DNA from: Hyalangium sp.
GTDB taxonomy: Bacteria > Myxococcota > Myxococcia > Myxococcales > Myxococcaceae
Assembly (NCBI RefSeq): GCF_035629615.1
Contig: NZ_DASPHO010000392.1
Location: forward strand, 9,761 to 73,760
Direction of reading: 5' to 3'
Length of the DNA: 64,000 nucleotides
Shown: positions 17,482 to 25,079 of the stretch, piece after piece
Numbering within the stretch: position 1 is the first letter of the stretch
Layout of the letters: each line of letters begins with the position of its first letter
Position numbers and translations under genes: made by a program
The notes under the pieces: model-generated
Told to the model about the DNA's origin: nothing
What the model saw: only the letters and a program-made list of their open reading frames with translations
Database searches by the model: none

Positions 17482-18210
17482 TCACTTCATCAAGCGGGCC
17501 AGATCCATGGAGGCGAGCGTGAAGTCCGGTTGCTCCTCGAGCACCGCCTTCAGCTCCTTCTTCGCCGTCTCCACGTCCTTGCGGTCCTTCGCGTCGAGCG
17601 CCCGGGAGTAGCGCAGCGCTGTCCTCGCGGTGAGCTTCAGCGCCAAGGCCGGCTGGGGCGCGCCGAAGCTGCCGGCGGGCTTGGGGGCGGGTTGATCGGA
17701 TGGCTCAGGGAGCGTGGCGACGAGCTCCTCGAGCACCTTGTTGAGGTCTTGCGCCAGCTTCTGCTCGAGCGTGAAGAACTCGTCCGCACTGCCTCGCGTT
17801 CCCAGGGAGCGGACGATCTGGCCCGTCTTCATGTCGATGACCCTGGCGTCGATGCGCAGGGAGCTCAGCAGGTCGAAGTAGTCGCCCACCACCAGGTACT
17901 GGGCGCCCACCAGCTTGCCGATCTTCACGACGGTGGCCGCGTCGAACTTCTGGGACTTGCCCAGGTCCAGCTCTTCGATGATCTCCTGGAGCCGATCCCG
18001 CTCCACGAGCGTCACGGTCCCGAAGCCCGACAGATCCGTGATCAGCATCTGCGCCAGGCCCTTTTTGAGCACCTCCAGCTCGGGGGTCTTGCCGCCATAC
18101 CCGAAATACAGCACCGCCACCGTGGGCTTGGCCGCGGCAAGGGCGGGCAGGGCGAGCAGCCCCAGGAAGAGACAGAGGAGGCGCAGGGGAAGAGAGAGCA
18201 GGGCACGCAC
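17482..18210 (-). CDS. CsgG-fold (curli-channel-like) lipoprotein, short paralogue
   Basis: GTG 18210 gives VRALLSLPLRLLCLFLGLLALPALAAA, then VAVLYFGYGG..LKKGLAQMLITDLSG..VTLVERDRLQEIIEELDL..KIGKLVGAQYLVVGDYF, the CsgG-family pattern. The longer ORF up to 18606 has no signal peptide. Confidence 0.7.
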   Translation of the reverse strand: MRALLSLPLRLLCLFLGLLALPALAAAKPTVAVLYFGYGGKTPELEVLKKGLAQMLITDLSGFGTVTLVERDRLQEIIEELDLGKSQKFDAATVVKIGKLVGAQYLVVGDYFDLLSSLRIDARVIDMKTGQIVRSLGTRGSADEFFTLEQKLAQDLNKVLEELVATLPEPSDQPAPKPAGSFGAPQPALALKLTARTALRYSRALDAKDRKDVETAKKELKAVLEEQPDFTLASMDLARLMK

Positions 18211-18253
18211 GAAGAGCGATTCTGGCACGGGTGCGCCTGTATGCTGCAACCCG

Positions 18254-22381: not shown

Positions 22382-22463
22382 TCGGGCTCTCGGGGACGCA
22401 GACAGCAGCCCCGGTATCACCCGGCTCGCGCAGCCGGTGCAAGGGCCCTCGAGCCCCCGCCTG

Positions 22464-25079
22464 CTACGGCAGGGAGAGGTCGAGGCTCACCCGGACACCG
22501 AAGTTGCACGAGGCCGTGTTGCCCGAAGGATCCGTGGCGGTGCAGGTGACGGGCGTCAGGCCCGGGATGAAGAGCGAGCCGGGAGGATGGCTGCAGGTGA
22601 CCTGCGCCGGGCCGCAGCTATCGGTGGCCGACACGGCGAACTGGACGATGATGGAGATCTCTCCGAGGCTGATCGATGCGTCCACCGAGATGGGGCAGGT
22701 GATGGCGGGCGGCGTGCTATCGCCCTGGACCGTCACGTTGAAGCCGCAGGACTCGCTGTTACCGGAGCCATCCGAAGCGGAGCAGGTGACGGCCGTCTGA
22801 CCCACTGGGAAGGTGGAGCCGGAGGCGTGCGAGCAGGAGACCTGCGCGGGGCCGCAGTTGTCCGTCGCCGGCGTCTGGAAGGACACCTGGGCACCATTCG
22901 GAGCGCAGCTCTCGATCGTCCGCGAAGCCGGGCAGCTCACCGCGGGCTTCGAGGTGTCCACCACGGTGACGTGGCCCACGCACTGCGCGGTGGCGGCCCC
23001 ATCGTTGGCCGTCAACGTCACGGTGTGGCTGCCCAGGCTGAACGTGCCCGGGGGCGACTCGGAGATGGAGAACGGCCCGGGCTGGCTGTCCGGATCGTGG
23101 CTGCCGTTGTCCACGCTGGCGCTGGCCCCGCACTGGGCATCCGCGCTGACAGTCACGTCCTTGCAGAGGGCTACGGGTGGCTGGTTGGCCGGCGGCGGGG
23201 GCTCGCAGGTGAGCTCCACCGTGGTGGAGACGCTGTTGTTGGCCTCGTCGCACTCAGTCTCCCGGTCCGTGCCCGTGCCGTCGTCATCCGCCACGACGAA
23301 GAGCTCGACACTCCCGCCCGAAAGCGCTCCAGAAGTCACGGAGGCCAGGACGCTCGCGCCCGGGGCGATGGCGTCCACGAGGGTGGCCACCCCGATCAGC
23401 GTGCCCCCCGAGGCCGGGTTGCCACGGTAGAAGGCGACCTTGAGCCCCGCGGCGACCGCGGAGGAGCCTTGGTTGCTGACACGCGCGCTGAGCAGGAGGG
23501 TGCCTTCCTCACCACATGCGAGGGACACGGAGGAGGCAACGACGACCAGATCGGAAGCCGCGTAGGAGACGTCGCCCAGGTAGCCCGCCACGTTGGAGCG
23601 GAAGGTGTTGAGGTTCGGCTGCTGCCAGTGGCTCGCCGGGTGGGCTGGGATGCTGCCGTCATTGTTGACGTTGGTGACGGCGTAGGCGTGCTGGTTCCAG
23701 ATCTTCCGCGTGTGCGCCCAGCCCTCCTGCGAGTCGTGGTACACGCGGATGCCGTGGTACGGCGGATACGCCAGATCGTTGGTTGCCACCACCAGATCCG
23801 CGGCGAAGTCGCCATCCACGTCCGCGATGACCGGGTTCTCGTGCGTCGTGCCCGAGCTGTGGCGCGTCTGCCAGCGCACCGCTCCCGTGGCGCCGTTGTA
23901 GATGCGCAGCGACACCTCGTCCGCGAGGACGAGCTCGATGCGGCCATCATGGTCGAAGTCAAAGGCGGTGGCGCCGGCCTTGCCTGAGCTCCAGTCCTGG
24001 ATGGCGCTCGTCCACTTCACGCTGCCGTCCGTCTCGAAGACGGTGAAGGCGTTCTCGCCCGCCACGCCGATCTCCGGCAGGCCGTCATTGTCCACGTCCG
24101 CCAAGGTGGGCCCACCGCCGCAGCCGTTCACGCAGCCGCCGGGGATGTTCACGCTCCACTTCAGCGAGCAGTCGTCATCCAGCAGGCTCACCTTGCCGTG
24201 GCCCGACACGACGATCTCACCCTTGATGTCGCCGTCGAAGTTGCCCACCGCGGACAGACCCTGGGGAACGTTCGTGTTGGCGCACTTCAGGCTGCCATCG
24301 AACCGGTACACGGAGCGGCCGTTGACGACCTCCTGCTTCCCGTCCCCGTCAATGTCCGCCGAGAAGGACACCGGGCCGGTGTGCTGCGCACCGCCCATGC
24401 CATCCGAGCCCACCCACTTCAGCGCGCCCGTGTTGCTGTAGACGCGGTTGCCGTCGAGGATCTCCACGGTGCCGTCACCGTCCAGATCCGCCAGCGAGGG
24501 GCCCCCCCACTCGTTGTAGTCGAAGGCGTCCTCGGCCGAGCGGAACTTGAAGGTGCCGTCGTTCTCGTAGCAGATGATGCCGCGGCCATTCATCGGGATG
24601 CCGCAGATCTCCACCATCGGATCGCCGTCGATGTTGCCCACGGCGATGCTGGCGGCGCCCTTGATGCGGTGGGCCGGATCCGTGACGGCCCACAGGTCGT
24701 GCCCATCGCTGCCGCTGATGGCGCGCAGCACTCCCTCGCGCCAGTCGAAGTCGTCATTGGGGATGTCGCGGAAGGAGCTGAAGATGATGTCCGGGGTGCC
24801 GTCCTGGTTCACGTCCGCGACCGCGGGCGTCATCATCACCTGGTTGAACTCGGGGAGGACGGAGCTGCCCGTCCACGCCCACTGCAGCTCCGGCTCGAAG
24901 TTCGGCGTGAAGGGAGGGACGACCTCGCAGACCCCCTCCAAGTTGTCCGTGTTCCGGTCGTTGAGCTCCTCCGCTCCGCCAGGAACGTCGCAAGCGGATC
25001 CCAGCGTCAGCCCCACCAGTGCGACAAAGACCAGGCTTCGTTGAGCCTGTGTCTCCCGACTGTCGCGTCCATGGTTCAT
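22464..25079 (-). CDS. secreted FG-GAP/VCBS repeat - CARDB-like - tandem HYR domain surface protein
   Basis: GAGGAGG before ATG 25079. Signal/lipobox-like LVGLTLGSAC. Repeated DxDxDG calcium-loop motifs (DVNQDGTPDI, DLDGDGTVEI, DIDGDGKQEV, DVDNDGLPEI, DFDHDGRIEL, DVDGDFAADL). C-terminal Cys-patterned HYR-like repeats (PAVSCP...ATDNCG...VTCSASDGSGN...C.F.V.V). Confidence 0.85.
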   Translation of the reverse strand: MNHGRDSRETQAQRSLVFVALVGLTLGSACDVPGGAEELNDRNTDNLEGVCEVVPPFTPNFEPELQWAWTGSSVLPEFNQVMMTPAVADVNQDGTPDIIFSSFRDIPNDDFDWREGVLRAISGSDGHDLWAVTDPAHRIKGAASIAVGNIDGDPMVEICGIPMNGRGIICYENDGTFKFRSAEDAFDYNEWGGPSLADLDGDGTVEILDGNRVYSNTGALKWVGSDGMGGAQHTGPVSFSADIDGDGKQEVVNGRSVYRFDGSLKCANTNVPQGLSAVGNFDGDIKGEIVVSGHGKVSLLDDDCSLKWSVNIPGGCVNGCGGGPTLADVDNDGLPEIGVAGENAFTVFETDGSVKWTSAIQDWSSGKAGATAFDFDHDGRIELVLADEVSLRIYNGATGAVRWQTRHSSGTTHENPVIADVDGDFAADLVVATNDLAYPPYHGIRVYHDSQEGWAHTRKIWNQHAYAVTNVNNDGSIPAHPASHWQQPNLNTFRSNVAGYLGDVSYAASDLVVVASSVSLACGEEGTLLLSARVSNQGSSAVAAGLKVAFYRGNPASGGTLIGVATLVDAIAPGASVLASVTSGALSGGSVELFVVADDDGTGTDRETECDEANNSVSTTVELTCEPPPPANQPPVALCKDVTVSADAQCGASASVDNGSHDPDSQPGPFSISESPPGTFSLGSHTVTLTANDGAATAQCVGHVTVVDTSKPAVSCPASRTIESCAPNGAQVSFQTPATDNCGPAQVSCSHASGSTFPVGQTAVTCSASDGSGNSESCGFNVTVQGDSTPPAITCPISVDASISLGEISIIVQFAVSATDSCGPAQVTCSHPPGSLFIPGLTPVTCTATDPSGNTASCNFGVRVSLDLSLP

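Follow-up and report, generated by a model that had tools for sequence, protein, structure and literature searches.

Does a compact group of envelope genes in a myxobacterium export a protein or relay a signal? The question is raised by a stretch of 64,000 nucleotides from Hyalangium sp. (RefSeq assembly GCF_035629615.1, contig NZ_DASPHO010000392.1, positions 9,761 to 73,760 of the forward strand; hereafter the window), in which a first-pass annotation, made from the letters alone, had described four neighbouring open reading frames of 242, 775, 607 and 871 amino acids. These genes, here called A_short, B, C_long and D, were taken for two paralogous CsgG-fold lipoproteins bracketing a CorA-like membrane protein, next to an FG-GAP/HYR surface protein, and it was suggested that outer-membrane channels, an inner-membrane pore and a cargo together make up a trans-envelope apparatus for export or signalling. 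All four reading frames are present where the annotation had placed them. Of the two functional options, export finds no support and signalling fits the data better. Here, we report that the conserved unit is a partly different set of four genes, TPR430, A_short, B and C_long, and that it is restricted to the Archangiaceae/Myxococcaceae. B appears to join a degenerate DHH/DHHA1-like domain to a CorA-like module, A_short and C_long are predicted to be soluble periplasmic proteins, and we tentatively propose that the four genes act together. The analysis was computational throughout and covers gene structures, domain identities, the loss of catalytic motifs, the missing channel features of CsgG and synteny.

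Conservation of the gene cluster

We retrieved 63 genome loci with a homologue of B, 52 of which are evaluable on both sides of B. TPR430 and the short paralogue lie upstream of B, and the long paralogue downstream, in 30 of these 52 loci, and 10 of the 52 keep the upstream pair alone beside B. Counted gene by gene, 44 of 56 evaluable loci have TPR430 beside the short paralogue, and 33 of 56 have C_long on the downstream side of B. A deep clade of 33 loci, defined by B proteins less than 65% identical to that of the window, retains neighbours of B throughout (all three in 23 loci, the upstream pair in 8), with TPR430 present in 32. In the deep clade TPR430 stands on the same strand as A_short and directly downstream of it; in the window clade it is inverted, and still adjacent. 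Loci with B only, including those of Archangium gephyra, A. violaceum, Cystobacter fuscus and some metagenome-assembled genomes (MAGs) (L005, L006, L009, L012, L047, L048 and L053 in our numbering of loci), keep B in its place on the chromosome, flanked by OsmC-like/DUF and DUF2911 genes, and the partners are gone from the locus. This synteny pattern indicates an association that is ancient in the lineage but, in some genomes, dispensable or with its partners relocated. At locus L015 all three neighbours are missing and the g13-g14 genes directly abut B.

The synteny in relatives that the earlier model called for is therefore found for the short paralogue, B and the long paralogue, but not for the adhesin gene: tblastn detected a relative of D in 0 of the 63 loci. 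The closest relatives that keep C_long have a 5'-nucleotidase fusion or a DUF2071 protein upstream of it, not D. The description of D as an FG-GAP/HYR protein is correct (five FG-GAP repeats, CARDB and two HYR domains; Pfam HYR 1e-29, FG-GAP_3 9e-25, CARDB 6e-6). Its role as cargo is another matter, since its absence from all 63 loci, with unrelated genes in its place, leaves that idea without comparative support. We are highly confident that D lies outside the conserved module as a lineage-specific neighbour.

The genes of the window, which has a GC content of ~68%, were called by third-position GC, and the starts chosen agree with the N-termini of the orthologues. A_short and B are divergent with 43 bp between them, TPR430 and A_short are convergent and 4 bp apart, B and C_long are convergent with 3' ends that share 24 bp, and 82 bp separate D from C_long. 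Promoter and terminator scans and an Rfam search gave nothing informative.

Protein B

The first-pass annotation had found a CorA-type pore in B and nothing else that could be recognised. The inner-membrane module holds up, and the rest of the statement is superseded, as the N-terminal 380 residues are DHH/DHHA1-like. A separate AlphaFold2 model of residues 1-385 reached a predicted local distance difference test (pLDDT) score of 86.6, and a Foldseek search with the N-terminal domain returned PggH (7d62, probability 0.85), GdpP (5xsi, probability 0.91), PPX1, CDC45 and family II pyrophosphatases; every match at the top of the list was a DHH/DHHA1 protein. When B is aligned with its distant relatives, the relatives carry 'LDVGN...(I/V)LDHH(H)' and 'H..PDLD'; the corresponding stretches in the B clade read 'L(T/S/N)VG...HPRML' and 'HE(A/P)TLD', with no intact DHH or DxD catalytic motif. 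Because these motifs are kept in the distant relatives and lost in the B clade, B is, judged by its alignment, a catalytically degenerate member of a family of DHH-phosphoesterase and CorA-like fusions. The loss also means that the N-terminal domain cannot be a signal-degrading enzyme, and suggests that it binds a ligand rather than cleaving it. In the wider family (B residues 28-64 and 96-124 aligned), 'DVG...DHH' lies ~50 residues N-terminal to 'H..PDxD', so that the canonical order of motifs I, II and III is reversed, perhaps through a circular permutation or because the site is not equivalent.

The C-terminal half of B consists of an alpha/beta/alpha cytoplasmic domain, long stalk helices, a first transmembrane helix at residues ~704-726, a periplasmic loop and a second transmembrane helix at ~744-768. 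An AlphaFold2 model of the full-length protein, built from 42 homologues, has a pLDDT of 80.8, and its top Foldseek matches are Thermotoga maritima CorA, 2iub and 8tmb, with the weak scores (E ~0.01, probability 0.54-0.69) to be expected of a monomer with a long stalk. The PADLOC CorA-like model PDLC01043 matches residues 608-731 (E = 4.3e-5), and Pfam CorA is found in 8 of 42 orthologues (best 7e-6); the window's own B has no match in Pfam or NCBIfam, and PDB sequence searches with it, as a single sequence or as a profile, gave nothing useful. It took structure prediction, PADLOC and the distant relatives to identify B. At the end of the first transmembrane helix, neither B nor its orthologues have the G-M-N signature of CorA. 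In place of the CorA Y-G-M-N-F they carry GFFSGAQF (residues 723-730, window 20420-20443), invariant in the orthologues, and the periplasmic loop that follows has G..P..T.GW, likewise invariant. Some distant relatives carry SMN, STN or GVN at the GMN position. With GAQ in this loop, the pore is unlikely to be Mg2+-selective. UniRef labels the Stigmatella orthologue 'CorA-like Mg2+ transporter protein'. Overall, we are confident that B combines a pseudo-DHH domain with a defence-type CorA-like module.

Full-length homologues of B at 45% identity or above number 95; all belong to Hyalangium, Archangium, Cystobacter, Stigmatella, Vitiosangium and related MAGs. When 1.84 billion representatives were searched with a profile, a much wider circle of 432 relatives (clusters at 50% identity) emerged, many of them 780-880 amino acids long, matching B end to end and found in other phyla, for example in Leptospiraceae. 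PADLOC CorA-like models match 21 of 24 distant full-length relatives (best 2.9e-28), PDLC01174 matches 19 of the 24, and Pfam DHH matches 5 of 62 distant relatives. Elsewhere, TIR domains, protein kinases and, through a transmembrane helix, caspases are joined to the DHH-like domain, and this attachment to alternative effectors is how a regulatory or sensor module behaves. The distant DHH-CorA genes are surrounded by PARG, ADP-ribosylglycohydrolase, FGE-sulfatase, vWA, kinase and cyclase genes (contexts L066 and L067), and DUF4145-like proteins occur near them in 3 distinct loci of 80 metagenome loci, a weak lead. A PARG-like or ADP-ribosylglycohydrolase gene lies near the distant DHH-CorA gene at L066:8315-8734 and L067:13085-14416; together with the DHH-TIR fusions, such neighbours hint at a ligand derived from ADP-ribose.

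The short and long paralogues

A_short and C_long are paralogous, as had been noted, with 37% identity over ~200 amino acids (E = 1e-33). Their assignment to the CsgG fold stands for a minimal alpha/beta core and goes no further. Both exceed the gathering cut-off of Pfam CsgG (PF03783; 20.8 bits), A_short with 54.2 bits (1.6e-14) and C_long with 49.0 bits (6e-13), over profile positions 8-96 and 8-102 of 210, that is, over about half of the profile. Pfam LpoB (PF13036; cut-off 22.3 bits) is matched as well, by C_long with 40.1 bits (4e-10, positions 23-139 of 147) and by A_short with 25.7 bits (1.2e-5). NCBIfam LpoB and TolB models match both proteins weakly and far under their equivalog cut-offs; the LpoB equivalog TIGR02722 is not reached (25-32 bits against a cut-off of 110), and FlgO and TolB models also score weakly on the domain. 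Profile searches of the PDB with this domain are just as weak and do not discriminate (CsgG 6e-3, FlgO 0.026, LpoB 0.25). The part common to the two proteins is an LpoB-sized domain of ~125-140 amino acids, followed by a linker and TPR-like helices.

CsgG (PDB 4uv3 and 3x2r) carries a lipid on Cys1, and each of its protomers contributes two beta-hairpins to a 36-stranded barrel; its core has ~230 amino acids and the mature protein ~260. At ~125-140 amino acids, the domain of A_short and C_long has no room for the two transmembrane beta-hairpins. An hhalign comparison with an Escherichia coli CsgG sequence that was verified in part left at least ~40 CsgG residues unmatched and had low confidence in its second half. 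The two proteins had also been called lipoproteins, but no lipobox with a Cys to be lipidated was found in either protein, and ~80 orthologues from related loci have plain Sec signal peptides with AxA-type cleavage and no conserved Cys. The window proteins do have a single Cys in the signal peptide (R-L-L-C and F-F-L-C), inside the hydrophobic core, with 10-14 further hydrophobic residues between it and the cleavage sites AAA|KP and VRA|ES; it is absent from most orthologues. Moreover, csgE, csgF, csgA, csgB and hfa genes are found neither beside A_short and C_long nor among the conserved neighbours in the 63 loci.

As far as sequence can tell, then, A_short and C_long are soluble periplasmic proteins with an LpoB/TolB-N-like domain fused to TPR, which is the very kind of domain that the export model had named as speaking against it, and very probably they are not channel formers. 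The A_short family has more than 838 homologues in Myxococcota, mostly of 220-250 amino acids and annotated 'TolB-like' or 'CsgG/HfaB family', and a caution follows for annotation in general: the automatic 'CsgG/HfaB family' label on TolB-like proteins of ~230 amino acids does not denote a secretion channel.

TPR430 and the receptor pair

The fourth conserved gene, which was outside the earlier gene set, encodes the bitopic protein TPR430. Its N-terminal domain is homologous (E = 7e-10) to that of a protein with a 'faint' DUF4145 match, and the position of the HEPN-type Rx4-6H motif reads Q-A-W-G-N-L-S-S-H, with Gln for Arg in all orthologues. Between two deep clades this domain is 66% identical, against 27-31% for the remainder of TPR430, ~50% for B and ~32-38% for A_short and C_long; by these identities, no part of the cluster is more constrained than the cytoplasmic domain of TPR430.

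Beyond the taxonomic range of B, a homologue of A_short is convergent with, and abuts, a gene for a single-pass receptor in five of six evaluable contexts. The receptor is a Ser/Thr kinase-TPR protein in four of the five and a TPR430 homologue in one (L064), and the periplasmic TPR of TPR430 shares homology with the TPR found at the C-terminus of these kinases (E = 3e-12 and 6e-10). The C-terminal region of C_long, by comparison, shows no similarity to the periplasmic TPR of TPR430. A small LpoB-like/TPR protein and a receptor of the type X-TM-TPR (TM, transmembrane helix) probably form a recurring pair with exchangeable cytoplasmic outputs, and such a pair would make A_short a periplasmic co-sensor.

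The extended cluster of the deep clade

In the deep clade the four genes are accompanied by others (L019-L062; for example L028:16659-18857(-), 6603-7919(-), 18485-20767(-) and 6127-6588(-)). Downstream of TPR430 lie genes for a secreted caspase (C14), a cyclic nucleotide monophosphate (cNMP)-binding protein, a secreted protein without assignment and a DedA/VTT protein. Beside C_long, one protein combines a DHH domain like that of B (hhalign probability 93%, E = 3e-7) with a transmembrane helix and a caspase (Pfam), and after its gene comes that of a trypsin-like lipoprotein with FG-GAP repeats. In an unrelated MAG (L065), the trypsin-FG-GAP and DHH-like-caspase genes form a trio with a homologue of A_short; an 806-amino-acid protein beside that homologue was considered as a diverged B and rejected (hhalign probability 0.4%). 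The protease genes of the deep clade are absent from the window and its close relatives. The extended cluster and the neighbours of the distant relatives give the family the flavour of a conflict or cell-death system, which for the window, without proteases, is circumstantial.

Features of the window

The features of the cluster and of D are collected in Table 1.

Table 1 Genes of the cluster, their domains and the adjoining gene D, in window coordinates
Feature	Position	Strand	Residues or length	Description or basis
TPR430	16203-17477	+	424 aa	alternative TTG start at 16185
TPR430 N-terminal domain		+	1-145	cytoplasmic, DUF4145/HEPN-like helical
TPR430 transmembrane helix		+	~174-192	transmembrane prediction
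TPR430 periplasmic TPR		+	297-423	conserved Cys; Pfam TPR
A_short	17482-18210	-	242 aa	GTG start; alternative start 18228 gives 248 aa
A_short alpha/beta domain		-	28-160	LpoB/TolB-N/CsgG-core-like; Sec cleavage after AAA27
A_short C-terminus				one TPR-like helical pair
B	18254-20581	+	775 aa	
B N-terminal domain	18254-19393	+	1-380	cytoplasmic, two-lobed, DHH/DHHA1-like; catalytic motifs degenerate
B CorA-like module	19406-20581	+	385-775	AlphaFold2, Foldseek, PADLOC; Pfam in orthologues
C_long	20558-22381	-	607 aa	
C_long LpoB-like domain	21932-22306	-	26-150	Pfam LpoB/CsgG
C_long extension		-	~450 aa	helical/TPR, 4 C-terminal Cys; weak Pfam TPRs
D	22464-25079	-	871 aa	

Around these genes, we made several further observations. 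Just upstream of the start of D, the intergenic positions 25096-25161 hold two tandem 33-bp units with the GC-rich palindrome CCCCGCGGACCGCGGGG, which may be a repetitive extragenic palindromic (REP)-like element or the terminator of the upstream carboxyltransferase gene. Two genes upstream of TPR430, on its strand, are conserved solely in a Hyalangium-like clade (L001, L002, L004 and L015): one for a secreted Gly/Cys-rich protein of 360 amino acids with no family match (13393-14475, +) and one for a transmembrane, Pro-rich protein of 495 amino acids with a weak PKD match (14486-15973, +). The gene at 10564-12003 (+) encodes HTTM and vitamin-K-dependent gamma-carboxylase lumenal-like domains (Pfam 1e-79 and 9e-44) and stands beside a GH3 beta-glucosidase-type gene and a gene with a weak likeness to prokaryotic phospholipase A2 (12079-12723, -). 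At 28652-33187, the gene of a ChaN/haem-binding-type protein is divergent from that of a TonB-dependent receptor; the locus probably serves uptake of iron or haem and has no bearing on the four-gene module.

Function of the cluster

It is possible, at a little short of an even chance in our estimate, that the four genes form one coupled, envelope-linked signalling and effector module. In such a module, the N-terminal domain of B would bind a small phosphorylated or nucleotide ligand, or a protein partner, and binding would gate an oligomeric CorA-like pore. A_short and TPR430 would be a periplasmic sensing pair, the soluble LpoB-like/TPR protein acting with the TPR domain of the single-pass receptor, and the DUF4145/HEPN-like cytoplasmic domain of TPR430 would talk to the cytoplasmic domain of B. 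An envelope or periplasmic cue could in this way control ion flux or membrane depolarisation, with C_long, the second and extended periplasmic paralogue, as a co-sensor or scaffold. Three steps of this scheme are inferred: the gating by a ligand, a physical contact of TPR430 with B, and the direction in which the signal runs.

Several observations weigh against this proposal. B has none of the three neighbours in 10 of the 52 evaluable loci and can therefore persist without adjacent partners. The pair of A_short and receptor also occurs without B, so the two halves are separable modules, and because the B homologues come from one family-level group, shared ancestry explains part of the synteny. 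The N-terminal domain of TPR430 matches DUF4145 (PF13643) with E = 1e-3 and 19.6 bits, under the cut-off of 23.1, and an iterated hidden Markov model found no DUF4145-like neighbours among the 80 metagenome loci beyond the three. The cluster in the window contains no ligand-making enzyme (cyclase or Cas10), and the missing beta-hairpins of A_short and C_long are judged from domain length and profile coverage.

The same separability would be expected if the genes were neighbours by descent, B being a stand-alone ligand-gated effector (an abortive-infection or developmental-lysis pore) and the periplasmic module unrelated to it. We regard this as the less likely account, but a serious one. Some loci have B by itself at an unchanged chromosomal site, other Myxococcota have the A_short/receptor pair without it, its distant DHH-CorA relatives have quite different neighbours and its own family is taxonomically narrow. 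Common descent accounts less easily for an adjacency that is kept in nearly all 33 deep-clade loci, at B identities down to ~49%, and that survives the inversion of TPR430, or for the very tight spacing (43 bp divergent, 4 bp, and the 24-bp convergent overlap). The second membrane protein of the deep-clade cluster, with its transmembrane helix, caspase and B-type DHH-like domain, is also hard to put down to chance.

A bolder version of the coupled module, which we think rather doubtful, makes B and its partners a CRISPR-independent descendant of NrN-CorA-type immune effectors, domesticated in the chromosome, in which the dead DHH domain receives a signal that the A_short/TPR430 pair relays from the periplasm and the outcome is an envelope-triggered depolarisation or death pathway. 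If true, the same receiver domain would control a transmembrane caspase in the deep clade, the pathway would be specific to multicellular myxobacteria, and the DHH-like domain would constitute a new family of sensor domains common to CorA, TIR, kinase and caspase effectors.

A system of envelope-linked regulated proteolysis or cell death is improbable. The LpoB-like/TPR proteins would scaffold or inhibit periplasmic proteases, B and its transmembrane-caspase paralogue would be alternative death effectors triggered through their common DHH-like domain, and the window clade would have a reduced version of the system. The caspase C14, DHH-like-TM-caspase, trypsin-FG-GAP lipoprotein and cNMP-binding genes of the deep clade speak for it, as does the position of the A_short homologue at L065, beyond the range of B, after trypsin-FG-GAP and DHH-like-caspase genes; the fusion of the DHH-like domain to TIR points the same way. 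However, the window and its close relatives have no protease genes, nothing indicates that A_short or C_long binds a protease, and the locus is chromosomally stable beside housekeeping genes (miaB and a deoxyhypusine-synthase-like gene), unlike typical mobile defence islands.

It is very improbable that B is an ordinary transporter of divalent cations (Mg2+, Co2+ or Zn2+) accompanied by LpoB-like regulators of peptidoglycan synthases. The CorA-like fold, the UniRef label and the LpoB matches in Pfam are all consistent with such a pairing, but GMN, which is essential to CorA/ZntB-type transport, is replaced by invariant GAQ, B scores better against defence-type CorA-like models than against Pfam CorA, and A_short and C_long have TPR extensions and lack the lipid anchor and long linker of LpoB. 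An export apparatus of CsgG-like outer-membrane channels, a CorA-like inner-membrane component and an FG-GAP/HYR cargo is essentially excluded: the Pfam CsgG scores of both paralogues, the 'CsgG/HfaB family' labels that NCBI gives to homologues and the tight packing of the genes are outweighed by the missing lipobox, the half-covered CsgG profile and LpoB-sized domain, the lack of curli-type partners, a candidate cargo in 0 of 63 loci and the fact that proteins of the CorA/MIT superfamily are channels or pores that conduct ions, not polypeptides.

If the coupling proposed for the four-gene module is real, B would be the first CorA-type effector controlled from outside the cytoplasm, and Stigmatella, Archangium and Cystobacter would offer a tractable way into the regulated permeabilisation of membranes during the development or defence of myxobacteria.

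Comparison with known systems

CsgG shares a homologous alpha/beta core (beta1-alpha1-beta2-alpha2...) with A_short and C_long, which lack its lipid anchor, transmembrane beta-hairpins and constriction loop and have a TPR extension instead. In size and core, their domain equals LpoB, the N-terminal domain of TolB and FlgO, which are minimal representatives of this fold group. LpoB and FlgO are lipoproteins, whereas A_short and C_long are predicted to be soluble, secreted and fused to TPR; LpoB proper has a long linker besides its lipid anchor, and the locus has neither a PBP1B-type nor a flagellar context. The C-terminal half of B matches the architecture of the CorA/MIT Mg2+ channel (T. maritima CorA, 2iub), with the second transmembrane helix following the stalk and first transmembrane helix after a short periplasmic loop, and differs from it by GAQ for GMN, by an extra N-terminal domain of 380 amino acids and by the lack of a Pfam CorA match.

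To our knowledge, defence-type CorA effectors are known solely as accessories of type III CRISPR systems gated by SAM-AMP (S-adenosylmethionine-AMP), and their cytoplasmic domains and pore mechanism are poorly understood. Type III-B NrN-CorA fusions have a two-helix CorA-like module after a large cytoplasmic domain and a DHH/DHHA1 partner, and B is alike in layout. Chi et al. (2023, Nature 622:826; PMC10600005) report that NrN is structurally closest to PggH and GdpP and that some species have nrn fused to corA. PggH and GdpP are likewise the closest structures for B residues 1-385, and the likeness is one of layout and fold. In contrast to NrN-CorA and type III CorA, the B clade has no DHH catalytic motifs and no cas context, its neighbours are periplasmic, and its locus keeps a fixed place in the chromosome in a single lineage of myxobacteria. 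We found no Cas domains among the window neighbours, the conserved neighbour families, L066 or L067, with no systematic cas scan of all loci, and no CRISPR-like array in the window. The locus suggests that an NrN-like plus CorA-like layout is widespread outside CRISPR (432 clusters, many of them full-length), and that a catalytically dead version of the DHH-like domain became fixed beside periplasmic sensor proteins in one lineage of social bacteria.

In the literature searched, there is no account of a CRISPR-independent DHH-like/CorA family or of a pair of LpoB-like/TPR protein and receptor, and neither Kaur et al. 2020 (PMC7159879) nor Kaur et al. 2021 (PMC8195603) mentions DHH, the CorA protein, DUF4145 or CsgG in such a setting. 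The nearest counterpart of the pair is the gene arrangement of myxobacterial Ser/Thr kinases with a periplasmic TPR and a small 'TolB-like' partner, which are uncharacterised (L068, L069 and L151). The window has the same arrangement, but a DUF4145/HEPN-like helical domain replaces the kinase and a CorA-like protein adjoins the pair. Both parts of the locus are variations on known kinds, the one on CorA effectors and NrN, the other on TPR-domain receptor kinases.

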